Part shown: piece after piece, positions 1 through 59,731 of the stretch
Layout of the letters: each line of letters begins with the position of its first letter
How positions within the stretch are numbered: the first letter of the stretch is position 1
DNA from: Candidatus Scatocola faecigallinarum
GTDB taxonomy: Bacteria > Pseudomonadota > Alphaproteobacteria > RF32 > CAG-239
Assembly (NCBI GenBank): GCA_018713605.1
Contig: DVOM01000001.1
Coordinates: forward strand, 67,158-131,157
Direction: 5' to 3'
Length of the DNA: 64,000 nt
Notes under the pieces: model-generated
Database searches by the model: none
What the model saw: only the letters and a program-made list of their open reading frames with translations
Told to the model about the DNA's origin: nothing
Program-made: the position numbers and the translations under genes

Positions 1-943
1 AACGGTTCCAATTCATTATTTTGCGGAAGTTCTCCCGCACCAGATAAGCCTTACCCTTACGCCCCTCGGGGACAATTATCGAAACTTTCTCCTTCGCCGG
101 CAGGCTTATTTTTTTGTTGTCCGCGGTTTTTACGCCCATTTTGCGCCATTTTTCAACCTCCAGACGCGTATCGCGTCCGCTCAGCGCATAATCGAAATTC
201 CACGGCAGGCTGACTTCCAGCCCCCAGTCCTCCCCTGCTTTCCAGCCGATGGAAGACAGATAGTTGGCCGCCGAGGCAATCGCATCCTCAAACGAATGCC
301 AGATGTCTATTCGGCCGTCGCCGTTGTAGTCAACCGCATAGGCGTTGAAAGTCGACGGCATAAACTGAAAATGCCCCATGGCGCCGGCCCAGGAACCCTC
401 CATTTTGGTATGGTCTATTTTCCAGACATCGACAATTTTCAGCGCCTGATACAGTTCTTCCTTAAAAAACTTCGGCCGCCGTTTGTCATAACTCAGCGTC
501 GTCAGCGCGTCAATTACCTGATAATTGCCGAAATGCTGTCCGAAATTGGTTTCCATTCCCCAGAAGGCAATCAGATAATTAATCTGCACGCCGTACTTTT
601 TTTCCATATCCTTAAACAGCGGATAAAGCTCACGGTACTTCGCCTGCGCCGCCGCCGTTTTTTTGGCATTGACCACCCGGTTGAGATATTCGGTCGACGT
701 CAGCACAAACTCAATCTGCCGGCGGTCTATCTTTACCACTTCCGGATCCGGGTGGTAATAGTCGTTTTCGCCGTAAACCTTCTTGATCGTCTTTTTCGAT
801 ATGCCGCGGTCAATCATCTCGTCTTTAAGTTCTTCCAGCCACCGGGTATAGACTTCCGGCGTTTCCCTTCTTTCCGCCGCAGACAACGGCTGCGGCAGAC
901 AAAGTGCCGACGCCAACAGTAACATGCCCAGTTTTGCTCTCAT
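1..943 (-). CDS. Lytic murein transglycosylase of the MltB family. The gene start is inside the window and the C-terminal part runs off the window edge.
   Basis: The reverse-strand translation starts MRAKLGMLLLASALC, a signal or lipoprotein-like N-terminus. It contains GAMGHFQFMPSTFNAYAVDYNGDGRIDIW, which is typical of the MltB family. The ORF track misses it because no stop codon falls inside the window. Confidence 0.8.
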   Translation of the reverse strand, partial: MRAKLGMLLLASALCLPQPLSAAERRETPEVYTRWLEELKDEMIDRGISKKTIKKVYGENDYYHPDPEVVKIDRRQIEFVLTSTEYLNRVVNAKKTAAAQAKYRELYPLFKDMEKKYGVQINYLIAFWGMETNFGQHFGNYQVIDALTTLSYDKRRPKFFKEELYQALKIVDVWKIDHTKMEGSWAGAMGHFQFMPSTFNAYAVDYNGDGRIDIWHSFEDAIASAANYLSSIGWKAGEDWGLEVSLPWNFDYALSGRDTRLEVEKWRKMGVKTADNKKISLPAKEKVSIIVPEGRKGKAYLVRENFRKIMNWNR

Positions 944-1093
944 ATTTTTATCCCGCCCAATAACTGACTTTGCCATTCATTTTACCGTTCAGCCTTTTAA
1001 AAACAGTTAATGCCGCGCAATTTTCTGTAGATAATTTGAATAAGACGGTTATAATGAATATATTGTTTTGGAAATCTGACATAGGAGGCCGCC

Positions 1094-2485
1094 ATGAACA
1101 CTTCCGCCGTTTTCCGTTCCCGATTCCGCCGCCATTTCTGGCTTTACGTCATTGCCGCCGTCGCCTCGCTGGGCGGCCTGCTCGCCGGCTTTGACATGGG
1201 CGTCATCTCCGGCGCGCTGCTTTTCATCAACGACACATGGAACATGTCCGACTTTACCAAAGGCTGGGTAGTCAGTTCGGCCATTGTCGGCGCCGTTATC
1301 GGCGCTGCCGGCAACGGTTTTCTGTCCGACATCTACGGACGCAAAAAAGTCATCATTGCCACGGCGCTCATCTTCGCCGTCGGTTCAGTCATCTGCGCCG
1401 CGGCGCCGAGCATAGGCTGGCTGATTGCCGGCCGCGTCATTCTCGGGCTGGCCGTCGGCATGGTCAACTTCGTCATTCCGCTGTATCTCTCCGAAATTTC
1501 GCCGCAGAAAGTCCGCGGCATGCTGGTTTCGCTCTATCAGCTGGCCATTACCGCCGGCATCTTATTCTCATACCTCATCAACCGCGTCTTTGCGCTGAGC
1601 GAATGCAACTGGCGCTGGATGCTGCTCTCCGGCCTGTTCCCGGCTTTGGTCATGCTGATTGGCATCAGCTTCCTGGGCGACACGCCCCGATGGCTCATCA
1701 GCAAAAAGCGCGAAGACGAAGCCCGCAGAATCTTTCTGGACATTGACCCGGACTGTAACCCCGAACAACAGATTAAAGAAATCCGCCAAACCATCAAACG
1801 TGCGCAAAAAAACGACGGACATTCCGGTTTTCAGCGTTGGATGCTGATGCCCGTCTTCGTCGGCGTCGGCATGATGTTCATGCAGATATGCACCGGCATC
1901 AACACGATTATCTACTACACGACAACCATTTTCAAAGTCGCGGGCTTCTCGTCGGCCATCGGTGCGATCTATGCCACCATCGGCATCGGTTTCGTCAACT
2001 TCTTCATGACTTTTGTCGCTATCGCCTTTGCCGACCGTATCGGCCGGAAGCCCCTGCTCTACGCCGGCCTGAGCGGCGTTACCGTCAGCCTGTTCGCGCT
2101 GGGGGCTTCTTTCTGGTTTGCCGACGCGCTTGGCGACAATCTCAAATGGATGGCTGTTGGCAGCGTGGTTGTATATATCGCCTCTTTCGCCTTTTCTCTC
2201 GGCCCCATCGGCTGGATTGTCGTTTCCGAGATTCTGCCGCTGAAAATCCGCGGCCTTGCCATGAGCATCTGCACCGTTGCCAACATGGCGTTCAACTTCG
2301 TTGTCGTTCTTACATTTCTGCCGCTGATAAATTCCGTCGGCGAAGCGCGAACTTTCTGGATGTACGGCATTATCGGCATCTTCTGCCTGTTTTTTACCTA
2401 CCGGTATCTGCCCGAAACCAAAGGACGCTCGCTGGAGCAGATAGAAAAGAACTGGGCCGAAGGCGTCCCTGCCCGCAAGTTCTGA
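1094..2485 (+). CDS. MFS sugar porter (sugar:H+ symporter family)
   Basis: 463 aa. Twelve transmembrane segments are predicted. Sugar-porter signatures GRKKVIIATALIF and PETKGRSLEQIE are present. An SD-like GGAGG lies upstream of the ATG. Confidence 0.9.
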   Translation: MNTSAVFRSRFRRHFWLYVIAAVASLGGLLAGFDMGVISGALLFINDTWNMSDFTKGWVVSSAIVGAVIGAAGNGFLSDIYGRKKVIIATALIFAVGSVICAAAPSIGWLIAGRVILGLAVGMVNFVIPLYLSEISPQKVRGMLVSLYQLAITAGILFSYLINRVFALSECNWRWMLLSGLFPALVMLIGISFLGDTPRWLISKKREDEARRIFLDIDPDCNPEQQIKEIRQTIKRAQKNDGHSGFQRWMLMPVFVGVGMMFMQICTGINTIIYYTTTIFKVAGFSSAIGAIYATIGIGFVNFFMTFVAIAFADRIGRKPLLYAGLSGVTVSLFALGASFWFADALGDNLKWMAVGSVVVYIASFAFSLGPIGWIVVSEILPLKIRGLAMSICTVANMAFNFVVVLTFLPLINSVGEARTFWMYGIIGIFCLFFTYRYLPETKGRSLEQIEKNWAEGVPARKF

Positions 2486-2499
2486 GAATTCCGCTTTTC

Positions 2500-2528
2500 A
2501 AAGGTTCCGTTCCCGGAACCTTTTTTAT
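2500..2528 (+). terminator. Rho-independent terminator after the MFS transporter gene
   Basis: Hairpin ggttccg-ttcc-cggaacc followed by tttttt. Confidence 0.7.
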
Positions 2529-2676
2529 TTTCGGTCGAACCGTTTTGTGTTGACTTACTTTGTCCGTTATGCTAAAATTTTTGTCAATTTTCTGAATTAT
2601 TCTGTTGACGCTTCTTATTATACTCCAATATCGCTTCAGCAGATAATTCTATTGTGTAATTTAAAAAATTTTTTTT

Positions 2677-3348
2677 ATGAAAAACTTAGAAGACGTAAAA
2701 AAGATGATGCTGCAATGCGTTGTCATCAACTGGGACGGAACACTGGTTTCTTCGGCTGCCATGATTCATCAGGCCTATCTGAAAACCATGCAGGCGTTGC
2801 AAATTCATCCCGAATGGTCGCCGGAAGACACGATGAGACAAAACGGCAGACCTCCTGTTGAAATTTTCAATGACGCCGGCATCTGGGGAAGCAAGGCCAT
2901 CGGTTCCGTCGCCAAAGACTTTTTCTACCGCGGCCTGGAAGACATCCGCAAAACCAAACCGGAACTTCTGCGCCTCAAGGACGGAGCACTTGACCTGCTC
3001 AACTGGTTTGCAAACCACCCGGCCTTCCCGCGCATTGTCATCTGCGGCAACAAAACCCAGTCCATTTTGGAACTGGAAGTTAAAACATTCAAACTTAAAG
3101 GTCTGGTAGACATCGTCATCGGCAGTCGCATGGACAGCCTTGACAACAAACCGCAGCCGGAAATGTTTGAACGCGCTGTCGAAGGGTTAACGATTAAAAA
3201 CCCGGCCGAAGAAGTTTTGCATATCGGAGACAATCCCCGTGTCGATCCCTCTTTTGCAGGAGCCTACGGCGCTTCTTCGATACTGGTTGCCGACACGTCC
3301 TCCGCGGACGCCGCGTCGCTGACCGAACTGCTGACCAAGCTGAAGTAA
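2677..3348 (+). CDS. HAD-superfamily hydrolase (phosphatase-like)
   Basis: 223 aa. N-terminal DxD-type motif INWDGTL. C-terminal IGDNPRVD motif. Confidence 0.75.
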   Translation: MKNLEDVKKMMLQCVVINWDGTLVSSAAMIHQAYLKTMQALQIHPEWSPEDTMRQNGRPPVEIFNDAGIWGSKAIGSVAKDFFYRGLEDIRKTKPELLRLKDGALDLLNWFANHPAFPRIVICGNKTQSILELEVKTFKLKGLVDIVIGSRMDSLDNKPQPEMFERAVEGLTIKNPAEEVLHIGDNPRVDPSFAGAYGASSILVADTSSADAASLTELLTKLK

Positions 3349-3361
3349 AAACCTAAATCTT

Positions 3362-3399
3362 AAAAAAAGAGCCCTCCGAATGGAGCGCTCTTTTTTTTA
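3362..3399. terminator. Bidirectional hairpin terminator between convergent genes
   Basis: A-run, then imperfect stem agagccctcc/ggagcgctct, then a T-run. It serves the HAD gene on the + strand and the 3397..4341 gene on the - strand. Confidence 0.55.
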
Positions 3400-4341
3400 A
3401 CCCGCAGCAGCATAATAACGCTTTTTCGCCTTTTCTCCGTCTTTCAGACGCTTGTATTTGCGAAACTCGCACAAACTGTTTTGAATATCATGCAAAGCCA
3501 GATAGTCGCCGCCGCAATAAGCGGGATTACGCCAACGCACCGCATGCCAGTCTTTGCCCGTGCGCAGCTTCAGCCGCTCCGTTTCCCTGGCCTGTATTGA
3601 ATAAAGATATCGGCACTTTTCCTCCGCTTCCCTTTTGCTCAGCCTTTTGCCGAAAATAATGTTCAATCCCCAGTGAGCGCCCGGCCCCACAATCAGAAAA
3701 TCATTCGCCGTATAATCGACAATATTCCCTGCATAAGTCGCATCAAGCAAAATCTGTCCGGCAAGAAAAGGACCGGCCAGCGCAACATGCTTTTCCACAA
3801 CTGACAACCCTCCTGCGGCCGGCGTTTCCGCCAATTCCCGGCAAAAGTCTTTTATTTTCCCGGCCATATCCGCCAACATGAGCAAAACCTGCACATGCTT
3901 GTCTTTCGGCCGATAAGCCGCATTATACGGATGCGATGAAATCAGATAGGCGTTTGAAAACAAGCTCTCCTGATTTCTTTTGGCATCAAAACGCGCTTCA
4001 AAAGCCTCAAAGTCAAAATTCTCTGGATCCAGCAAACCGCCGAACAGGTTTTCAATCGTATCGCGACGGTTAAAAAAGCGGTATGCGACAATGTTAAACA
4101 GCTTTTTTCCGACACTTATGCTCTCATCCGTCAGATATTTCGTCAGTGCCAGCGTACCGCCGTCCAACTCACGATAAACGTTACAGAAACGATAATTTCG
4201 GAGTATCTCGTCCGTACTCCACGGCGCAGGCAGATTCAAAACGTTCCGCCGATGCCAGATTTCCTGTCGGTCATATATAAATTCAAAAAATTCCGCAATC
4301 CTGTCCAATTGATATTTTCCGTTTAACATTAAATAATCCAA
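3397..4341 (-). CDS. Conserved hypothetical protein (314 aa) with no confident family assignment
   Basis: Long clean ORF. Motif FCNVYRELDGGTLALTKYL. No transmembrane segment. Confidence 0.6.
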   Translation of the reverse strand: MDYLMLNGKYQLDRIAEFFEFIYDRQEIWHRRNVLNLPAPWSTDEILRNYRFCNVYRELDGGTLALTKYLTDESISVGKKLFNIVAYRFFNRRDTIENLFGGLLDPENFDFEAFEARFDAKRNQESLFSNAYLISSHPYNAAYRPKDKHVQVLLMLADMAGKIKDFCRELAETPAAGGLSVVEKHVALAGPFLAGQILLDATYAGNIVDYTANDFLIVGPGAHWGLNIIFGKRLSKREAEEKCRYLYSIQARETERLKLRTGKDWHAVRWRNPAYCGGDYLALHDIQNSLCEFRKYKRLKDGEKAKKRYYAAAG

Positions 4342-4671
4342 GATTTTGCCACATATTTAACAAAAGTAAAACGAAACAAATTATTTTTACATAAAAACCT
4401 GAACTTTTAAACAAAGAAGAGGCAGCGCATTTCTGCACCGCCTTTTATATGAAAAAAACTTTTACTGGGTCAAAAGATTTTACTTTACCTGAGTAAATCC
4501 GGTATTGGCGGAGAGAGTTGCTAAGCAAAAATGACCTTTAATGTCATTTTTGTCTGCAAAACCAATGATGTCCCGGCGGTAAGCCGCCGACAGGCGGCGA
4601 ACAAGCCCCGGACAAATTGAAAGCTCTGCCCCGCGAAAACAAGCCCGCGACGTTTGAGCGGCTCCGCCTAC

Positions 4672-4694
4672 AAAAAAACCCGGAATAACCGGGC
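4672..4694 (-). terminator. Short GC hairpin and T-run immediately 3' of tRNA-Ser
   Basis: cccgg-aataa-ccggg, followed on the minus strand by ttttttt. Confidence 0.5.
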
Positions 4695-4705
4695 TTCTTT
4701 ACAAT

Positions 4706-4795
4706 TGGCGGAGAGGCAGAGATTCGAACTCTGGGAGGGCTCGCACCCTCGACGGTTTTCAAGACCGCTGCATTAAACCACTCTGCCACCTCTCC
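4706..4795 (-). tRNA. tRNA-Ser (anticodon UGA), with CCA encoded
   Basis: Reverse complement GGAGAGGTGGCAGAGTGGTTTAATGCAGCGGTCTTGAAAACCGTCGAGGGTGCGAGCCCTCCCAGAGTTCGAATCTCTGCCTCTCCGCCA. Long variable arm. Anticodon loop CTTGAAA. Confidence 0.9.
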
Positions 4796-50462: not shown

Positions 50463-52541
50463 TCACAAGGTATATTTGTGCCTGTTGAGAACATGACGCT
50501 GATACTCGGGCGCCAATTCGGTAAAATATCCGCTCCAGCCCCAAACACGTACAATCAAATTCCTGTGATTTTCCGGATGAGCCATCGCGTCTTCCAGAAC
50601 AGCGGCATCAAGCACATTTAGCTGCAATTGCTGGTTTCCGACATGAACAAAATATTTAATCAGATTAACCAGTTTTGAAATTCCTTCGTCATACTTGAAA
50701 ATTGTCGGCGAAAGTTCAATCGTAATCGGACCGCCGTTGACAATTCTGGAATAGTCTATCCCCGCAAAGGACTTTAAAACACTTAAAACCCCATTAATTT
50801 TAACACCATGTGCCGGTGCCAGACTGGCAGACAGCGGCTCCCCGGCTCCGCGCCCGTCTTCAGAAGCGCCTATATAAGGCAAATCGGCAGAAACGGGCTG
50901 CGTCAGCAGGATATAAAACATCGCGGAACCTGAACCGGGACGGATACGGCTCCGGCGCGTAGAAATCATCTCGGCAGCCAGCGCAAATGAATCAAACAAA
51001 AATTTCAAATTTCGATTGGAAACCGCATCATTGTTTCCCAGTTTCGGCAGTTTTGTTTTCAAAAACGCCTTCAGTTCCTCATAACCGCAAAAATTCTTTT
51101 TCGTCGCCCTGTACAGTTCCTTCAATTTCGCATGAGGATAATTATCGGCAAAATATTCAATCGCTGTCATCATATCCGCGGCATTGGAACTTCCCGCTCC
51201 GTGAATGCCTACATGATGATATTTGCTGGCAAATTCCACTTCTCTTGCTTGCTCCAAAGCGCCATCAACAAAAAGACACCCCAATGGACATGGCAAAAAA
51301 TGTATATCGCACACTTTTTGAATATGCCTGATTTGACGCCACATATCCCATTTAATCAGCTGTCGAAACAAAAATTTTGAAAAAAGCGGCAGTTTGACAG
51401 CCAGTTTAAAAGCCCTGTGCACGGCATAAGGAAAAGACACGGCGCTTTTATTGACAATTTCCACGCCCTTGCTCGGAATAACAAATTCCCAACAGGCCGC
51501 GACAGTATAGTTACGTGCATCTTCCAACGAATAGCCGTTTTTTACCAAAGCAGGTATAACGACCTCATCATTCGAATATTGCGGAAACCCCAAACCGCAT
51601 TCGGTCAGCATACAGGCCGTTTTCAGCAAATCATCGGGCGTGTTCCGATCAATTCGCAAATTTATTTTCGGATCTATCAGCTTTAAGTCTTTCGAAACCT
51701 CCATCATCAGATAGGTCAGTTCATTAACGGCAGGGTTCCCCTCCCCGTCACAGCCGCCCAGCATAACCGTCTGTCCGTTGTCTCCCTGCTGGACGCCAAA
51801 GTATGTATCGCTGTCACGGTTAAAAGAAATGAAAAATTCAGCAAACAAATCCCGCGCCTGTTCTTTGGTCAGCGTTTTTCTCTGCAAGTCTCTCAGATAA
51901 AAAGGATACAGATACTGATCCATGCGCCCCAAACCAATATGCGCGCAACCGGCATAATACAGCAACGCACTCATTAATCGAATAGACTGCATTGCCTCCT
52001 GCAGCGTCTTGGCACCGTACAGAGGAACCCGACGAAAACTTTCCGCCACCGAATGATTTCCGGCGGCTTCGGCTGCTGCCTCATAACGTTCGGCAAGGTT
52101 GGCAACAGCCTCGATGACGATGACAGCCGCTTCCAAAAAATCACGTTTTTGTTTATCTTTGGTTTTTGACAGTTTTTCTCGACAGAGTTCCAAACGGCCG
52201 GATAAGCCCTCGTTCAGGAGCTTTTCCCAATTTATGGTCAGATTGTTCAACGGGTGCAGTACTGCATCCTTTTCCACACCCAACGCTTTTTTTGCCTCCT
52301 TCGGCTCGTAATATGCCGGAACATTGTTGACGGTTCGGACAAAGGAAATCTTTTCGTCAGGAAAGACAATCGGCTCCAAAGCCTCACAGGAAATTTTAAA
52401 AGCAAGAGCGGCCCTTTTTTCCAAAGACAGATTTTTGCCCTTGAACTCGCCGACAAAATCAAATGTCCAGTCATGCCTGTATTTTTTGAACAGACGCTGC
52501 TGCGTAAAATCTCTCAACTCGCGAAGTCTTTTATTTAACAC
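50463..52541 (-). CDS. Glycyl radical enzyme (PFL2/glycerol-dehydratase-like family), substrate unknown
   Basis: C-terminal glycyl-radical motif VRVWGWSGYFTELAPEYQRHVLNR, which aligns with RVAGYSAFFVEL...PEMQRE. Cys loop AACWEF (C-x-E). Start set at the GTG at 52541, preceded by AAGGAG with a 6-nt spacer. Overlaps the activase stop. Confidence 0.85.
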   Translation of the reverse strand: MLNKRLRELRDFTQQRLFKKYRHDWTFDFVGEFKGKNLSLEKRAALAFKISCEALEPIVFPDEKISFVRTVNNVPAYYEPKEAKKALGVEKDAVLHPLNNLTINWEKLLNEGLSGRLELCREKLSKTKDKQKRDFLEAAVIVIEAVANLAERYEAAAEAAGNHSVAESFRRVPLYGAKTLQEAMQSIRLMSALLYYAGCAHIGLGRMDQYLYPFYLRDLQRKTLTKEQARDLFAEFFISFNRDSDTYFGVQQGDNGQTVMLGGCDGEGNPAVNELTYLMMEVSKDLKLIDPKINLRIDRNTPDDLLKTACMLTECGLGFPQYSNDEVVIPALVKNGYSLEDARNYTVAACWEFVIPSKGVEIVNKSAVSFPYAVHRAFKLAVKLPLFSKFLFRQLIKWDMWRQIRHIQKVCDIHFLPCPLGCLFVDGALEQAREVEFASKYHHVGIHGAGSSNAADMMTAIEYFADNYPHAKLKELYRATKKNFCGYEELKAFLKTKLPKLGNNDAVSNRNLKFLFDSFALAAEMISTRRSRIRPGSGSAMFYILLTQPVSADLPYIGASEDGRGAGEPLSASLAPAHGVKINGVLSVLKSFAGIDYSRIVNGGPITIELSPTIFKYDEGISKLVNLIKYFVHVGNQQLQLNVLDAAVLEDAMAHPENHRNLIVRVWGWSGYFTELAPEYQRHVLNRHKYTL

Positions 52542-53310
52542 GTTTTTCTCCTTCCATATGAACCCGATACCCTTTTTCCTCTGCCGTTTTTTTAAAACGG
52601 CGGATAATATCCATATCGTTTCTGATACCTTTGTGAAGCTGAAACCTTTTACCGAAAGTTTCATATTTTGCCCCGGCCAGTTCATTGTAGGGCAACAAAT
52701 CTATACTTTCCGGCCTGTTAGGAAGTTTCTCTAAAATACGGCCGATTCGATTTAAATTATCTTCTGTATCGGTTATTTGCGGAATCAGCGGAATTCGGAC
52801 ATGGAAAGGAATTGCCCTTTCGGACAAAGCCATCAGGTTATCCAGAATTATGCGGTTGGACTCCCCCGTATATTTCCGATGTTCCTCATCATCGGCAAGC
52901 TTTACGTCAAAATAGACCTTACTGAACATTGCTGCCAGTTTTAAAAACTTTTCGGCATCGCAATACCCCGAAGTGTCCAGTATCGTATGTATATCGGTCA
53001 GCTTTGGCAGCAGTTCCGTCAGAAAATCAGCCTGGCAGGACGGTTCTCCTCCCGAAAAAGTCACGCCGCCGCCGGAAAGTTCAAATACGTCGCGAAAAGA
53101 ATTTAACCTTTCCGCCAACCTGTCCGCCGTCCAGTTTTCTCCGCAGATTTCTCTGGTTTTCAAATTAAGTTCGGGAAAAAATTCCTGAGTTTCCGGATTA
53201 TGACACCACCGGCAGCGTAACGGGCACCCTTTCAGAAATACGGTAACCCGAATACCCTCCCCGTCATGAATGGTAAATTCCTTTATGTCACAAATACAGG
53301 CCGTTTTCAT
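52531..53310 (-). CDS. Glycyl-radical-enzyme activating protein (radical SAM)
   Basis: CPLRCRWCHNPE gives the CxxxCxxC cluster. 259 aa, typical size. Immediately upstream of the GRE. Confidence 0.85.
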   Translation of the reverse strand: MKTACICDIKEFTIHDGEGIRVTVFLKGCPLRCRWCHNPETQEFFPELNLKTREICGENWTADRLAERLNSFRDVFELSGGGVTFSGGEPSCQADFLTELLPKLTDIHTILDTSGYCDAEKFLKLAAMFSKVYFDVKLADDEEHRKYTGESNRIILDNLMALSERAIPFHVRIPLIPQITDTEDNLNRIGRILEKLPNRPESIDLLPYNELAGAKYETFGKRFQLHKGIRNDMDIIRRFKKTAEEKGYRVHMEGEKRVK

Positions 53311-54446
53311 TTATAGCTTTTATATTTCTTCTTATACTTCTGCTTAACTTTTCCCAAAGTCGCACAATACAGCATTCTGAAAAACAGATATTTCAGAAAA
53401 CTCTTTTTACCGGATTGCATCTGTTCTATGCGGACAATGCCGCTTTCCACCTGAGACAAACGGTTTTCCAGCCACCGGAGACGATTTTCGTTCTCATATT
53501 CCTTCAACGGACACATCGCTATCGGAAAAGGCAGCTTAAGAAACCGCTCATACGCCAAACGCATCTGCGGCAGCAAATCTCTGTTCTCTTCGCGCTGGGT
53601 AAAGAAACAGATGTGAACCATCGGCACGCTCAAATCCGCTACAATTTTCTTATTGTTTTTCCGACAATAGGAATAAGTCTGATATTCGTCGTCCGTATGC
53701 CCGATGTTAATGTCCGTCCAAAAAGACTTCTTAAAAAGCATACAGTTTATCGAATACCTCTCCCTGTTGTCGACTTCCCGATACGGCAGTTTCTGAACTG
53801 CCCGGACGTAGTCTTCCGGATGCAGCGTCGTCTGATTGTGAATCCATCTGGCGTAAAAAGGCAAAGCCCAAACGCTTCCGCCGCCGCCCGGATGTATTCT
53901 CCCCTTTTCCACAAAACGATACTTCAGGGAATCATTATCGTTCTTCACACCAATGTAATGCGCTACCGATATTTTCTGAAACTCGCCATCCAGCCCCATC
54001 GCTTCGACAACCTGTTTAAATCCCCAGGGGTTGTTGTTGACTAAGGACGTAACATACCCAAGTTTCCGCCCATACTTACGATACGAATTCTCGTAACAGG
54101 CAATCAGTTTTTCAAGCCAGTCGGACGTCAGCGGAAAAACGTCGTCGTCAACTTTGCAGATATAGTCATAGGACTTCATCTCGTCGCTTTCAAGCAATGT
54201 CTTAATACTGACAAAGGGCGCGCCGGGCTGAATCCAATCGACAACCGTAATCTGTTTCGGAAACATCTTCTGATACCGCAGACAAACCCTGTATGTCCTT
54301 TCCGTATCATATGTTCCCCGTCCGTTTTGCAGCAGATAAATATGAACATTCGGATTGGTCAGCTTCGTATAGGCTGCCAACGCAATTTCCAGGGCTTCAT
54401 AATCAGCATAACATAACTGAACAATCGCAATTTTCTTCAAGTTCAT
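53307..54446 (-). CDS. Putative glycosyltransferase (DxD-containing), unknown family
   Basis: 379 aa. KVDDDVFP motif. ATGA overlap with the activase start. Sits in a glycan operon. Confidence 0.4.
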   Translation of the reverse strand: MNLKKIAIVQLCYADYEALEIALAAYTKLTNPNVHIYLLQNGRGTYDTERTYRVCLRYQKMFPKQITVVDWIQPGAPFVSIKTLLESDEMKSYDYICKVDDDVFPLTSDWLEKLIACYENSYRKYGRKLGYVTSLVNNNPWGFKQVVEAMGLDGEFQKISVAHYIGVKNDNDSLKYRFVEKGRIHPGGGGSVWALPFYARWIHNQTTLHPEDYVRAVQKLPYREVDNRERYSINCMLFKKSFWTDINIGHTDDEYQTYSYCRKNNKKIVADLSVPMVHICFFTQREENRDLLPQMRLAYERFLKLPFPIAMCPLKEYENENRLRWLENRLSQVESGIVRIEQMQSGKKSFLKYLFFRMLYCATLGKVKQKYKKKYKSYK

Positions 54447-54455
54447 TTTACTTTC

Positions 54456-55493
54456 CTATATTTTCTTACCGTTAACCGTCATCGGCAAACTGTTTTTCAG
54501 TTTCTGCCGGTACGCTTTTCGCATTTGTTTAAACTGCCGCCTTTTTTCGCCCGCACACACTTTTGACAAAAGATAATATCCGAAATACCGGCAGCGCATT
54601 TTCCAGAGGCTTTCCTGATCAACGTCCGTATTCTGAACCATCATCACATCGGCTTCATAAGCTCTCATTCCCTTCTTCTCAATCATATACTGGAAATAGG
54701 CCGAATACAGCAGCTCGCCCAAATATGCAATTGTCCGCTTTCCGTTCGGCGAATATTCAGACACATCAAGAATCCGGTTAAAACCGGACAAAATCGGAAA
54801 TACAAAACCGGCATATTCCATAAATATCTTTTTGGAAGTTATCATCGACATATAAAGATATTTTTTCGGCTTGTATGAAAGCTGCTCCATAAAATTGCCA
54901 AAATCTTCATCTGCGGTTTTCACGTAAGCGATAAAATTTTCATAATCTTTCAGTTTGGTCCCTTCGATTCTGGCTGTAAAATCTTCTCTGATATCTTTCA
55001 GATTAATCAAAGAAAAATCCGAAAGACGCGGTAGCACCACGTCATATTTCTGCAACAGGGACAAAACGTTTTTTTCCGAAAGTCCCATTAAATCCAAATA
55101 CCGCTTGTCCGGGCTGCTCATCGTAAACATTGAATAACACCGGTCATGATTGTTTCTTTCAATATCTTTTCCCAAGGAACTCAAAATCAACTGCCGCCGA
55201 TACTGCATAAATCCGATAAAATCAGGATTTCCGACCGCGTCAAAATTCTTCCACGCCCAGTATTGAACCGTCATTTCGCAAAAATTTCGATTCAAACGGG
55301 AAATATTGTCACCACTATCATCGCCAATCGTATTCTTTTGCATCCACTTAATCTGTTCCGGCGTCAAAAAACCGTCCCGGGACTCTGACATTGCCACTGC
55401 ACGGCCGGCATGTACAGGAATCAACAAATCGTTTTTAAACAAATAAGTCGGCTTAAAATACGCCAACAGAATTTTGACTTTAGGTTTTACCAT
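54456..55493 (-). CDS. DUF4422-like protein, putative galactofuranosyltransferase, copy 2
   Basis: CEMTVQYWAWKN and the N-terminal pattern are paralogous to 38641..39489. Confidence 0.55.
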   Translation of the reverse strand: MVKPKVKILLAYFKPTYLFKNDLLIPVHAGRAVAMSESRDGFLTPEQIKWMQKNTIGDDSGDNISRLNRNFCEMTVQYWAWKNFDAVGNPDFIGFMQYRRQLILSSLGKDIERNNHDRCYSMFTMSSPDKRYLDLMGLSEKNVLSLLQKYDVVLPRLSDFSLINLKDIREDFTARIEGTKLKDYENFIAYVKTADEDFGNFMEQLSYKPKKYLYMSMITSKKIFMEYAGFVFPILSGFNRILDVSEYSPNGKRTIAYLGELLYSAYFQYMIEKKGMRAYEADVMMVQNTDVDQESLWKMRCRYFGYYLLSKVCAGEKRRQFKQMRKAYRQKLKNSLPMTVNGKKI

Positions 55494-56602
55494 TAATACA
55501 ACTCCTTAAACAAAGCCAATGCTCTCGCAACGGCAACATCCATATTGTAATATCTGTAATCGCCCAACCGGCCGAAGAAATGAACATTCTTGCAATTTTC
55601 GGCCAGAAGCAGATACCGATTGTACAATTCAAGATTTTTATCTTGCGGAACGGGATAATACCGCTCATTTTTTCCGCGTTCGAAAGCCGCCGGATATTCC
55701 AGCGAAATAACCGTCCTGTCGGACTTGTCGTTGAGAAAATACTTATGCTCGCAAATACGCGTAAAGTCATAATTGTTCGGATAACTTACCACAACGCCGT
55801 TCTGAAAATAAGGCGTATTCTCCTCTCTGATGTCAAACTCCAAACTCCGGTAAGGAAGTTCTCCCAGCTCATAGTTAAAAAACTCGTCAATCGGCCCCGT
55901 ATAATAGACATTCTCCGCTTCAAAATTCTCCGCGTCATAAGGCGTATTCAACCTTACCTCAATAAGCGGATGAGCCAGAATATTCCCAATCATTTTGGTG
56001 TATCCGTCCTGCGGAATGGCCTGATAGCGGTCGACAAAATAGTCGTCATTGGTGGACACGCTCACGGGAACGCGTTCGGCAACCGCCGGATCCAGTTCTT
56101 CCGGCGTTACGCCCCACTGCTTTTTATAATAATTCAGAAAACCTTTCCGGTAGATGTAATCCGCCAGAAAAGACAGGTCGGCGTCATCCTGCTCTCTGAG
56201 TTTCAAAATGGACAGCCGGTTGCCGTATCCGACAATATTGATAAGTTTTTGGCTGATTCTCTGCGCCATGTCTTCGGGAAAGCATTTCTTCAAACTGTTC
56301 AGATTAAACGAAAACGGAACCGTCTTCCCGTCAATGTAAGCCTGTACTTTCAGAAAAAACGGATGCCATTTGGTAAAACGCGACAAATAATGCCAGACCT
56401 CTCCGTTTGAGGTATGAAAAATATGCGGTCCGTATTTATGAATGCAAATGCCGTTTTTATCCCGATAATCAAAACAGTTTCCGCCGATATGTCCTCTGGC
56501 GTCAATAACCAGAACCGGCTCATTCAAAACGCCTGCAATCCGTTCGGCCATAACCGCGCCGGACAAACCGGCGCCGACGACCAGATGTTTAATCTTGCGC
56601 AT
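55493..56602 (-). CDS. glf: UDP-galactopyranose mutase, copy 2
   Basis: 369 aa. LVVGAGLSGAVMA FAD motif. Roughly 60% identical to copy 1 over its length. Confidence 0.9.
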   Translation of the reverse strand: MRKIKHLVVGAGLSGAVMAERIAGVLNEPVLVIDARGHIGGNCFDYRDKNGICIHKYGPHIFHTSNGEVWHYLSRFTKWHPFFLKVQAYIDGKTVPFSFNLNSLKKCFPEDMAQRISQKLINIVGYGNRLSILKLREQDDADLSFLADYIYRKGFLNYYKKQWGVTPEELDPAVAERVPVSVSTNDDYFVDRYQAIPQDGYTKMIGNILAHPLIEVRLNTPYDAENFEAENVYYTGPIDEFFNYELGELPYRSLEFDIREENTPYFQNGVVVSYPNNYDFTRICEHKYFLNDKSDRTVISLEYPAAFERGKNERYYPVPQDKNLELYNRYLLLAENCKNVHFFGRLGDYRYYNMDVAVARALALFKELY

Positions 56603-57425
56603 AGGCTTTTTCCTTATGAAGTTTCAGATAATTCATCAACACCGACCTGTTGCGGCGACAGCTGTCAGACAGTTCCTGAGGTGTAAACGGCGATACGAAC
56701 CGGTGCAGTTTGTCCACGTTCAGAACAAACTGATCCCGCGGCGGAACGTTTCCCTCAAAGAAAATATGTTCTTCGCCGACAATGTCTGTCAGAAGTCTTT
56801 CCAAAGACAGGGCAAAACCGGCTCCGACATTGATTATCCCGGACACTTTCTTATGAATGAGAACACTAAGCGCCTTTTGCAGATAATCTCTGGTAATAAA
56901 ATCTTTCCTTGTTTCCGGATTCTCCGTAACAATCAGCTTGCCACGGGTTAAAATGCTTTCGCTGATCCACCCCATAAAGGTCTTATATCCCGTCCTGTTG
57001 ACCGGTTCACCCAAAACGTTAGCCACCCGTACAATCAGAGATTGTCCCGGAATTATCCCCTGAATAGCCTTTTCGGCTGCCGCCTTGTTTTTGGCATAAG
57101 CGTCAAGCGGCTGCAACGGCGCTGTCTCGGCAATCTCGTCAGCCAAATTCCGGGAACCGTAAACTTTGCGGGAAGAAATCATTACCAGTTTTGTCTCCGA
57201 ACCTTTTATCATCCGAGCCAGTTTTACGTCCAATAACTCGTCCTGCGACAACGTTTTACAGCTAAACTCCGGCTGTATCGTAAAATTAATAACAGCGTCA
57301 AAACGCTTTATTTCCTCTTTGTCGACATAATCCAGCCTTGGAAAACTCATAACGTCGTCCGATATGAACACGTTTTGCAAATTCCGAGCTAAATAGGCGT
57401 CATTACCGATTACAGCCACTTTCAT
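56589..57425 (-). CDS. NAD-dependent epimerase/dehydratase (SDR) family protein
   Basis: N-terminal KVAVIGNDAYLARNL Rossmann motif. 278 aa. Confidence 0.7.
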   Translation of the reverse strand: MKVAVIGNDAYLARNLQNVFISDDVMSFPRLDYVDKEEIKRFDAVINFTIQPEFSCKTLSQDELLDVKLARMIKGSETKLVMISSRKVYGSRNLADEIAETAPLQPLDAYAKNKAAAEKAIQGIIPGQSLIVRVANVLGEPVNRTGYKTFMGWISESILTRGKLIVTENPETRKDFITRDYLQKALSVLIHKKVSGIINVGAGFALSLERLLTDIVGEEHIFFEGNVPPRDQFVLNVDKLHRFVSPFTPQELSDSCRRNRSVLMNYLKLHKEKAYAQD

Positions 57426-57546
57426 TTTGTTACCTTTTCAAACAACGCCCAAATATTCCGCGTCGGTTTGGTCACAGACAGAACCGGAACCAGCCCCCGT
57501 TTTCTGTCTCTCTTTGTTTTCAGCCTTTTAGCCAAACTGCCGCACC

Positions 57547-58173
57547 TCACGAATATTGAGTATGGTCGCGGTTTTCGGCATTTTTACTCTGCAACAAACG
57601 TCCGACTTCGGGATTTTGAGCCAGAAAGTTATAAAGCGACACGACGGAAATACCGGCTTCCTGTGCTGCCCTCTTTCGCGAAACGCCGGACAGCAGCCTG
57701 GAAACGATAAGCTCTTTCTTCCCGTCCCAAACACGCTTTTTATTCTTGCTGCCCAAACAGCGCCCGAGTTTGCAGCCGCTCGCCTTTTTCTCGTCAAGAG
57801 AGTTTTTGGTAATCGTCGAAACCATGCTGTTGCGTATTTCAATAGACAAAGCCAGCCCCTTCAGCAGCAAATCGGTTTCCGAAGACGGCTTTAGAACCAG
57901 CTTTTCCTTAACACAGACCAGATTCAGCCCTTTTCCGAGAAACGCCTTCAGATTTTCAACAATCACCGCCAGAGAATTTCCCAAACTGGCAACATTGGCG
58001 CACAAAACCGTATGCCCGGTCGTTTGAAAACCGGCTTCCATATTCCGTATATCCGTTTCCGAAACATACATGTCGACGGCAAAATCATTGTCTGCGGCAT
58101 ATTGTTCAATTACCCGCCGCTGTTTCTCAACCGCAATGTTTTTTCCGCCAATGTCCAAATACCCGATAACCAT
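57547..58173 (-). CDS. Serine-recombinase paralog with degenerate catalytic residues but a retained C-terminal HTH; putative regulatory pseudo-recombinase. It is the first gene of glycan operon 2.
   Basis: MVIGYLDIGGKNIAVEKQ in place of the MxxGYxRVSTxxQ nucleophile motif. ASLGNS in place of SRLGRN. The HTH RKRAAQEAGISVVSLYNFL is retained. It is co-linear with the adjacent intact invertase. Start set at the ATG preceded by GAAGG. Confidence 0.7.
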   Translation of the reverse strand: MVIGYLDIGGKNIAVEKQRRVIEQYAADNDFAVDMYVSETDIRNMEAGFQTTGHTVLCANVASLGNSLAVIVENLKAFLGKGLNLVCVKEKLVLKPSSETDLLLKGLALSIEIRNSMVSTITKNSLDEKKASGCKLGRCLGSKNKKRVWDGKKELIVSRLLSGVSRKRAAQEAGISVVSLYNFLAQNPEVGRLLQSKNAENRDHTQYS

Positions 58174-58197
58174 ACAAACCTTCGCCATCATACCATC

Positions 58198-58214
58198 TAA
58201 CGAACGATATTTTT
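58198..58214. repeat. Left 17-bp inverted repeat taacgaacgatattttt
   Basis: Perfect reverse complement of 58326..58342. Confidence 0.9.
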
Positions 58215-58325
58215 TCTTGTACTTTATGTGGGTAATTTTTGCAATACCTTTTTATAAGAAATCACAATAATTTTCTACCTTTTTTATAGGTTAACACATT
58301 TTTCTCTACCGGTAACGCCTTGGGC

Positions 58326-58342
58326 AAAAATATCGTTCGTTA
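58326..58342. repeat. Right 17-bp inverted repeat aaaaatatcgttcgtta
   Basis: Perfect reverse complement of 58198..58214. Its core CGTTCGT resembles a recombinase half-site. Confidence 0.9.
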
Positions 58343-58391
58343 AATTTACAAACATCAATTATTGCTGTTTTTCTATATGAAATACAACCTG

Positions 58392-58991
58392 TTAAGCTTT
58401 AGGTATACCTGCAAGAAAATTATAAATCGTTTTACTGCTTACCTTCATAATGCGGGCAATCTGCGCCTTTTTCATTCCACCCTGATATAAACTGATTATC
58501 TCATCCTCTCTGCCGTCAAGAATATGCCTTTTGTTCTTCGTGCCGAATTCGCGCCCCAGTTTGCGTCCGCTGGCCTTGATTCTGGCCAGAGCCTCTTTGG
58601 TTCTCTGTGAAATAAGATTACGTTCAATTTCCGCCGAAAGCGAAAACGCAAAAGCCAGAACCTTGCTTTGAATATCAGCTCCGAGCCGATAGCGATCTTT
58701 AATTGTCCAAACCTGAACTTCTTTGTTCATACAGATGTTAAGCATTGTCATAATCTGCAAAATATTGCGCCCCAGACGGGAAATTTCCGTACAAATCAGC
58801 ACATCGCCCTTTTTAAGTTTCCTGATCATTTTTCCAAGTTTCCTCTCTTCAAAATCCTTGGTTCCGCTGATTGTCTCCGTTATCCATCTGTCAATTTGTA
58901 TTTTTTCCCCAGTACAAAAATTATTGATTTCAAATTTCTGATTCTCAAGTGTCTGCCTGTCCGTACTCACTCTGACATATCCGTATATCAT
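58392..58991 (-). CDS. Small serine recombinase (DNA invertase, Hin/Gin/Mpi-like) with intact catalytic residues
   Basis: MIYGYVRVSTDRQ carries the catalytic Ser. SRLGRN and AEIERNLISQRT are present. C-terminal HTH KAQIARIMKVSSKTIYNFL. 199 aa from the internal ATG. Confidence 0.85.
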   Translation of the reverse strand: MIYGYVRVSTDRQTLENQKFEINNFCTGEKIQIDRWITETISGTKDFEERKLGKMIRKLKKGDVLICTEISRLGRNILQIMTMLNICMNKEVQVWTIKDRYRLGADIQSKVLAFAFSLSAEIERNLISQRTKEALARIKASGRKLGREFGTKNKRHILDGREDEIISLYQGGMKKAQIARIMKVSSKTIYNFLAGIPKA

Positions 58992-59034
58992 TTTAATCTC
59001 CGTAAAAAGCTTAAGTATATTTCCGCCGTGCAAT

Positions 59035-59067
59035 AAAGAAACGCCCCGCAGATTGTATCTGCGGGGC
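59035..59067 (-). terminator. Strong hairpin terminator (10-bp stem) downstream of the GNAT gene
   Basis: gccccgcaga-ttgta-tctgcggggc. Confidence 0.7.
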
Positions 59068-59095
59068 AAAAACACCAAATGTTACCTACGAAAAA

Positions 59096-59731
59096 CTATT
59101 CGATGAAAGAACGGCTCATAATGTAAAATTCTTCCTGACTCGGCAGCACCTTCTTTTCCATCGGTTTCCAGGTATCATCGTATGCCCTGGCATCTTCCTC
59201 GGAAACTTTCATAACCGGGCTGCAGAAATAAACCTGTTTTCTACCGTCCAGAGCGCCGGGGACAAGTTCTTTGGCCATCATTGCCGCCGGATATCTTCCT
59301 TCTTCCGAACAGATGTTATACTTTTTACAGCTTTTGAATCCCCTGCCGACATAATTCGCGGGACTTCCGAACAAAACAATAACTTCATAACCAAGCGCCG
59401 ACGCTCTTTCAAATGAATGTTCCATCAGCTTTCTGCCATACCCTTTTCGCTGAAATTCGGGCGCGACGCAAATCGGCCCCAACGTCAGAATTTCCTTTTC
59501 CCGTCCGTTTTCGTCAACCAATCTGGCCCGCGTGTACATAACGCTCCCGACAATCTGTCCGTCCTCTTCAATAACCAAAGACAGTTCCGGCACAAAATCG
59601 GCATGCGAACGCATAACATGCACCAGATAATGTTCGACGCAACCGGGAACATAAATGTTATAAAAGGCCTTTCTGGTCAGTTCCTCAACAATCCCATAAT
59701 CCTTTTCCGTCTCGTTCCGTATAACTGCCAT
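59096..59731 (-). CDS. GNAT-family N-acetyltransferase
   Basis: 211 aa. QIVGSVMY...VAPEFQRKGYGRKLM acetyl-CoA motif. Confidence 0.8.
   Translation of the reverse strand: MAVIRNETEKDYGIVEELTRKAFYNIYVPGCVEHYLVHVMRSHADFVPELSLVIEEDGQIVGSVMYTRARLVDENGREKEILTLGPICVAPEFQRKGYGRKLMEHSFERASALGYEVIVLFGSPANYVGRGFKSCKKYNICSEEGRYPAAMMAKELVPGALDGRKQVYFCSPVMKVSEEDARAYDDTWKPMEKKVLPSQEEFYIMSRSFIE

Follow-up and report, generated by a model that had tools for sequence, protein, structure and literature searches.

Does the short DNA segment that separates a recombinase gene from a glycan operon in Candidatus Scatocola faecigallinarum act as a genetic switch, and if so, what does it control? We addressed this in a window of 64,000 nt (contig DVOM01000001.1, positions 67,158 to 131,157, forward strand; positions below are those of the window), in which exact inverted repeats of 17 nt enclose 111 bp beside mpi, a gene for a small serine invertase. 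We conclude that the locus is very probably a working invertible-promoter (inverton) phase-variation switch: the repeats flank a segment that occurs in both orientations in near-isogenic backgrounds, the enzyme is intact, and the module and its promoter motif are conserved across species.

The repeat is TAACGAACGATATTTTT at 58198-58214 on the plus strand, with its exact reverse complement at 58326-58342. A preliminary description of the locus had given this pair and its 111-bp interior, and we reproduced the coordinates; all parts of its interpretation that can be checked against sequence were upheld. With one mismatch allowed, the arms lengthen to 20 nt (95% identity; 58195-58214 and 58326-58345). 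In the 64-kb window the 17-nt pair is the sole exact inverted repeat of at least 15 nt with a spacing of 30-500 nt, and no further pair of such sites was found there; an exact 17-nt inverted repeat arose in 0 of 60 first-order Markov simulations, which places the pair beyond chance. The mpi-proximal arm itself reads as an internal dyad, TAACG-AA-CGATA, around a central AA/TT dinucleotide, and the predicted 26-bp recombination site is GTAAATTTAACGAACGATATTTTTTC. An Rfam scan of 57000-59500 returned no credible RNA family. The parts of the segment are as follows.

58195..58214, no strand: operon-proximal recombination site (predicted), an inverted-repeat arm that holds the exact 17-mer 58198-58214
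58215..58325, no strand: invertible interior, 111 bp, whose exact reverse complement lies between identical flanks in 16 of 21 other assemblies
58326..58345, no strand: mpi-proximal recombination site (predicted), an inverted-repeat arm that holds the exact 17-mer 58326-58342

The adjoining gene, mpi, is preceded by the terminator of its upstream neighbor.

58392..58991, minus strand: mpi, an intact 199-aa small serine invertase of the Mpi family, with a catalytic domain and a C-terminal helix-turn-helix (HTH)
59042..59068, minus strand: intrinsic terminator of the upstream GNAT gene, a 12-bp stem with 8 GC pairs followed by a T-run

Mpi matches the Pfam families Resolvase (4.3e-33) and HTH_7 (6.7e-7), and the NCBIfam model NF009949, 'master DNA invertase Mpi family serine-type recombinase' (cutoff 272), gives it 303 bits over residues 1-194 of 199. 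Its motifs YVRVSTDRQ, SRLGRN and EIERN align to S10, R68, R71 and E124 of gamma-delta resolvase; in full-length alignment with gamma-delta resolvase, Tn3 resolvase and Gin, it keeps the nucleophilic serine, both SRLGR arginines and the glutamate of the E-helix. The earlier reading of this gene as an intact serine recombinase with an HTH is therefore upheld by both family model and alignment. Across 20 assemblies, described below, its polymorphism is synonymous only, with zero nonsynonymous changes. The gene lies outside the invertible segment, 47 nt from it, giving the layout of the inverton class: a short segment bounded by inverted repeats and adjoining a site-specific recombinase gene. Mpi is presumably the enzyme that acts on these sites, and the constant adjacency of mpi and inverton in relatives suggests that it would act locally. 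The GNAT terminator is predicted to insulate mpi and the switch from read-through. A transposon resolvase/res system was ruled out: there is no transposase, and synteny is conserved across strains.

If the segment is a switch, both of its orientations should be found. We compared 20 independent assemblies, each encoding an identical Mpi or an identical downstream protein, together with one contig contributed by a junction scan of Joint Genome Institute (JGI) metagenomes, making 21. Every one of the 21 has repeats and flanks of 97-100% identity. In 16, the interior matches the reverse complement of the window interior exactly or nearly so, and the other five have the window orientation, so the inversion of 58215..58325 that the preliminary description had anticipated does exist, between near-identical flanks. 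Over about 9.3 kb of aligned flank, with the switch masked, assemblies L007 and L011 show no difference and L001 and L015 show one; each of these pairs has opposite orientations. Orientation is scattered over the strain clustering, and a G/A single-nucleotide polymorphism (SNP) in the interior is present in both orientations, so that all four combinations of SNP and orientation occur. Together, these three observations imply that inversion is recurrent and fast relative to point mutation. Both orientations thus occur, at the level of assemblies, on the same background in natural populations; this is active switching, not a fixed polymorphism.

Where is the promoter that such a switch would turn around? 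A generic sigma-70 scan of the segment found no site matching at least 9 of 12 consensus positions, and the promoter was therefore recognized solely through comparison with related loci. In 11 of these, the interior carries TTGACT-N18-TATAAG, facing outward, with its -10 element 6-8 nt from the repeat core. The 1.23 Mb of related loci hold 12 copies of this motif. Eleven lie in invertons and one is the promoter of a tRNA gene, which implies that the motif is a housekeeping-grade promoter in these bacteria. In the window species the same position is occupied by a related sequence.

58216..58244, minus strand: outward-facing promoter (predicted), -35 TTGCAA at 58244..58239, a 17-nt spacer and -10 TACAAG at 58221..58216

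The closest relative, L106, likewise has TTGCAA as its -35 element, and the three tRNA genes in the window combine a strong -35 (GCTTGAC/T) with a weak or loose -10 (TAxxxx). Promoter activity of TTGCAA-N17-TACAAG thus seems plausible from its position and its relatives; transcription would start at about 58209, within the operon-proximal repeat arm. Inspection by eye revealed no second promoter at the opposite end. In the 11 related loci the promoter points toward the operon in five and toward mpi in six, and homologous loci were found in opposite states (L041 versus L042; L034 and L038 versus L036 and L037). As far as sequence can tell, then, the segment holds an internal promoter that faces the regulated genes in one orientation only, and the invertible-promoter layout first suggested for this locus recurs as a conserved outward-facing promoter in homologous segments, with glycan genes downstream. 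Because its promoter faces the operon, the window is predicted to be in the ON state, and the 16 inverted assemblies would therefore be OFF.

How widespread is this module? Among the 80 related mpi loci that we compared, about 21 have an inverted-repeat pair that starts 20-65 nt after the mpi stop and has the core A(C/G)G-NN-CG (ACG-NN-CG in the window), and two further pairs start at -9 and 15 nt relative to that stop. The arms are about 60-190 nt apart, mostly 100-145 nt. Glycan biosynthesis genes follow the inverton in every related locus examined, although the gene sets differ (GT2, GT8/GT9, RmlA-D, DegT aminotransferase, Polysacc_synt_2 and RgpF among them). The search of related genomes for such repeats beside glycan loci, proposed in the preliminary description, thus gave a positive result. 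Some individual loci are more elaborate. In L053 (837-1055), three copies of GTTCGTTAAAATTTA follow the mpi homolog, one forward and two reverse, the latter 104 and 181 nt away, and these may form a nested or two-state, shufflon-like inverton. In L040 (10001-11443), two Mpi homologs (75% and 60% identity to the query) point toward one another, about 280 nt apart. Five of the 80 contigs (L026, L042, L044, L081 and L051) end at or near the inverton, either where the mpi match stops or within about 220 nt beyond it; an assembly graph would break there if a sample held both orientations.

The relatives also bear on the identity of the host. In species-representative genomes, Mpi relatives are 57-81% identical and come overwhelmingly from metagenome-assembled genomes (MAGs) titled Alphaproteobacteria, from guts of humans, rabbits, deer and sheep; no match above 81% was found in the species-representative contigs scanned with Mpi, the NCBI genome of the species being GCA_047014165.1. 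Two loci in MAGs titled Bacteroidales (L092 and L100) gave best-segment matches of 58% identity. The neighboring rpoD encodes a protein of proteobacterial-type architecture and is 87-91% identical to rpoD of three related MAGs, two of them titled Alphaproteobacteria, and these identities, like the record titles, agree with the alphaproteobacterial host assumed at the outset. The index of an assembly collection lists the identical Mpi protein in 4,493 blocks; wherever a source label gives an environment, it is human gut. Two of the contigs measure 1.89 and 1.95 Mb.

What would the promoter control? In the window orientation, it faces a series of minus-strand genes.

57547..58173, minus strand: catalytically dead Mpi paralog, the first switched gene, 208 aa, with GAAGG 5 nt before the ATG at 58173
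56589..57425, minus strand: gene of the NAD-dependent epimerase/dehydratase family (Pfam Epimerase, 5.6e-10)
55493..56602, minus strand: glf, UDP-galactopyranose mutase (TIGR00031, 413 bits, cutoff 304; Pfam GLF, 1.5e-67)
54456..55493, minus strand: DUF4422 protein (Pfam DUF4422, 4e-39)
53307..54446, minus strand: 379-aa protein, whose gene ends nearly abut or overlap the flanking genes
52531..53310, minus strand: activase of a glycyl-radical enzyme (GRE), radical SAM (TIGR02494, 219 bits, cutoff 174)
50463..52541, minus strand: PFL-like GRE, the last tightly packed gene of the operon (Pfam PFL-like, 4e-77; Gly_radical, 4e-21); its start was taken from gene calls in L001

The order of genes given in the preliminary description holds, with two changes. 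The gene it called a glycosyltransferase encodes the 379-aa protein, which has zero matches in Pfam or NCBIfam, so neither database supports that label; judged by its spacing, the gene is probably co-transcribed with its neighbors. The first gene, called recombinase-like, is indeed a relative of recombinases, but its catalytic residues have been lost. From the epimerase to the GRE, the genes overlap or nearly abut. UDP-galactopyranose mutase makes the galactofuranose donor, and because a bona fide mutase is among these packed genes, the most likely output of the switch would be a phase-variable surface glycan that contains galactofuranose. The GRE and its activase (50463-53310) stand at the end of a glycan operon, and a GRE in glycan or sugar modification would be unusual; against the NCBIfam equivalogs the enzyme scored far below all cutoffs and matched no characterized subfamily. 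In strain L012, the GRE/activase part of the operon is replaced by other genes, including a zinc-type alcohol dehydrogenase.

These observations lead us to the following model. The two sites of about 20 bp (58195-58214 and 58326-58345) are imperfect dyads centered on an AA/TT dinucleotide. Mpi would bind them, and strand exchange at that dinucleotide, the presumed crossover point, would flip the 111-bp segment. A single promoter at one end of the segment would face outward through the adjacent site. In the ON state, that of the window, it would transcribe the dead paralog, and then the genes for the epimerase, UDP-galactopyranose mutase, DUF4422 protein, 379-aa protein, GRE activase and GRE, which probably make or decorate a galactofuranose-containing surface glycan. 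In the OFF state, that of most assemblies, the promoter would be directed into mpi from its 3' end, leaving the operon silent.

Several points weigh against so complete a picture. The orientations were read from assemblies, and ON and OFF expression was predicted from sequence. The promoter in the window departs from the consensus of its relatives (TTGCAA for TTGACT, TACAAG for TATAAG) and stays below the sigma-70 threshold. The choice of Mpi over another recombinase draws on adjacency and family membership. Finally, a gap of 121 nt (57426-57546) separates the dead paralog from the epimerase gene and contains a GC-rich hairpin (57499..57485) that is not followed by a T-run. Because of this gap, it is the order of the genes and the conserved arrangement that link the glycan genes to the switch. 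The hairpin could itself be a processing or attenuation element.

The first switched gene raises a further question: why should a glycan operon begin with a recombinase that has lost its active site? The ATG at 58173 has an alternative upstream at 58191, which would give a protein of 214 aa. The protein is about 27% identical to Mpi and scores 81 bits against NF009949, below the cutoff of 272. An alignment covering eight species shows what it has lost relative to Mpi, namely the arginine and serine of the RVS motif, both arginines of SRLGR and a loop of 10 residues, and what it has kept, namely the E-helix, the GxKLGR arm and an HTH with a recognition helix similar to that of Mpi. An AlphaFold (AF2) model, with a predicted local distance difference test (pLDDT) of 76, matches the Sin, gamma-delta and Tn3 resolvases over its full length. 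At least eight other species loci have, at the corresponding position, a paralog with the same losses, and dN/dS, the ratio of nonsynonymous to synonymous substitution rates, is 0.12-0.20 among unsaturated pairs, implying that the protein is under selection. An exhaustive profile search gave 1,422 matches at E <= 1e-3; nearly all of the best 60 clusters at 50% identity are without the catalytic motifs, the only exception being P0062. A word-indexed protein search returned nine clusters, none with a source name. The paralog thus belongs to a sizeable family that is without a name in the protein database and has no Pfam or NCBIfam model of its own.

The more distant members of the family occur in varied contexts. 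In L101 the order is the same as in the window (mpi, inverton, dead paralog, glycan genes), and L106 and L107 combine the paralog context with a divergent mpi and an inverton. In L102 the paralog lies directly upstream of glycan genes, behind a fixed TTGACT promoter and with no invertase nearby, and in L105 it is found inside a prophage-like element. In the latter (266-4723), the paralog, GT2 and rmlACDB adjoin a tyrosine integrase gene and an S24 repressor-like gene, an arrangement that resembles a phage serotype-conversion cassette. In two loci (L025, 5380-6378; L101, 4596-5615), the paralog is followed by a protein of 330-340 aa made up of many tandem HTH motifs, which may be a second regulatory component of some switched operons. 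About half of the invertons are without the paralog, implying that it is an optional accessory.

Our leading hypothesis is that the dead paralog would be a regulator, binding DNA or Mpi and either feeding back on switching or repressing at such sites. In a specific form, which we regard as possible but somewhat doubtful, the protein, which retains the E-helix and the GxKLGR arm as well as a recognition helix much like that of Mpi, would be made in the ON state only and would bind the Mpi sites or form mixed oligomers with Mpi, so as to feed back on the switch. Such feedback may lock or bias the switch ON, or may repress promoters that start inside such sites, here or at other glycan loci. If this were true, the locus would be a self-sensing inverton, and the paralogs would be a new family of recombinase-derived regulators that head glycan operons in gut Alphaproteobacteria. 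The presence of the paralog suggests an extra layer of control, whether by feedback on switching or by repression across loci. A search of open-access papers found nothing relevant on dead serine-recombinase paralogs in phase variation, and within the literature searched we know of no described inverton that has a conserved dead recombinase as its first switched gene.

The same gene opens the way to the best-placed alternative, that the switch is real but its main output is regulatory: ON would yield the dead paralog as a DNA-binding regulator and OFF an antisense RNA against mpi, while the glycan genes would have a promoter of their own in the 121-nt gap upstream of the epimerase. The paralog is the sole gene that directly abuts the switch, the gap and its hairpin follow it, and in the OFF state the promoter faces the mpi 3' end; moreover, in L102 and L105 a dead paralog immediately precedes glycan genes although neither an invertase nor inverted repeats adjoin it, which suggests a role of its own. 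We nevertheless consider this alternative improbable, because the inverton feeds glycan genes directly, without the paralog, in L027, L030, L033, L054 and L074, and because the paralog overlaps or abuts the next gene in L025, L101 and L106; in the window, the lack of a T-run after the hairpin also speaks against it, and no promoter-like site was found in the gap.

An old inversion fixed between strain lineages is a much poorer explanation, and we give it very little credence. It would account for the single orientation in each assembly, but it is contradicted by the scatter of orientations over the strain tree, by the opposite orientations of assemblies with zero and one differences in 9.3 kb of flank, and by the four SNP/orientation combinations; nor does it fit an intact invertase with only synonymous polymorphism, or a both-ways pattern that is repeated in other species. 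Least credible of all is that the inverted copies are assembly artifacts: assemblers can mis-join at repeats, and the five related contigs that break off just after mpi might seem to support this, but other points oppose it. Several record names show k-mer sizes (k113-k141) that exceed the 17-20 nt of the arms, so that a flip would need spanning reads. Both states recur across sources whose records are named in different styles (k127/k141_, NODE_, scaffold, Logan), the inverted interior is perfect to the base, and a mixed population would be expected to break contigs at the switch. An actively inverting promoter that controls the glycan operon remains our preferred reading.

At the scale of the window (1-64000), GC skew is negative in every 2-kb bin, cumulative skew falls steadily, and most long open reading frames lie on the minus strand. 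The window is probably contained in one replichore, with the minus strand leading.

Phase-variable surface glycans controlled by Mpi-type invertases are a hallmark of gut Bacteroidales; the locus described here extends the same strategy to an alphaproteobacterial lineage that is uncultured and very prevalent in human and animal guts. Public assemblies were the sole source of evidence for natural switching. In addition, the two junction sequences provide an orientation marker with which existing metagenomes can be scored for surface variation in vivo. For Alphaproteobacteria as a class, invertons already appear in general computational surveys (PMC11602134). Our literature search for invertons in gut members of the class yielded nothing beyond such surveys, and we found no account of the Mpi module of this lineage or of the dead paralog.

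How, then, does this switch compare with known systems? It is most like the Mpi-controlled capsular polysaccharide (CPS) promoters of Bacteroides fragilis: the invertase passes the NCBI model of the Mpi family, short inverted repeats surround a promoter segment upstream of a glycan operon, and most assemblies are, by prediction, OFF. The site, TATCGTTCGT on one strand, agrees at 8 of 10 positions with ARACGTWCGT, taken here as the putative Bacteroides core; this string was not found in the literature searched. There are also differences. The host is a gut alphaproteobacterium with promoters of sigma-70 type (TTGAC.. at -35), whereas Bacteroides promoters use a TAnnTTTG element at -7 (PMC4747536). 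The 'master' Mpi of Bacteroides is one enzyme for many dispersed regions, whereas a single site pair was found here within 64 kb and mpi adjoins its own inverton at 47 nt, as it does in about 20 related loci. The leader genes of Bacteroides CPS operons are UpxY and UpxZ, a NusG-like antiterminator and an inhibitor. These regulate CPS expression (PMC10403206). In their place, the operon here begins with the dead recombinase paralog, which matches only Resolvase and NF009949 and no NusG or KOW family.

Other switches share individual features. Like Salmonella Hin with its hix sites and the phage invertases Gin and Cin, Mpi is a small serine invertase, about 190-200 aa long, that carries an HTH at its C terminus, and its recombination sites have dyad symmetry and a presumed 2-bp crossover; its fold and catalytic residues align with the structures of Gin and gamma-delta resolvase. 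The Hin H-segment also contains an outward-facing promoter, as predicted here, but it is an invertible segment of about 1 kb that includes the hin gene itself, whereas mpi lies outside its 111-bp segment. E. coli fimS is likewise a short invertible promoter that adjoins a recombinase gene. In fimS, moreover, the state of the switch alters a recombinase-family product (FimE), and the logic, though only the logic, would be similar here, with the dead paralog made in ON and mpi antisense RNA in OFF. FimB and FimE are tyrosine recombinases and both are catalytically active, and a feedback effect of the dead paralog in this fim-like manner is hypothetical.

Finally, repression by Tn3 and gamma-delta TnpR at res provides a precedent for a serine-recombinase fold that serves as a site-specific DNA-binding regulator. 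The parallel would extend to position, since the predicted ON start lies inside a recombination site, where a bound dimer could repress transcription. TnpR is catalytically active; the paralog, in contrast, has neither the nucleophile nor the catalytic arginines and forms a conserved family of its own. Overall, the locus is a genuine inverton of the kind that Mpi controls in Bacteroides, here in a new lineage and with the dead paralog as a new component.

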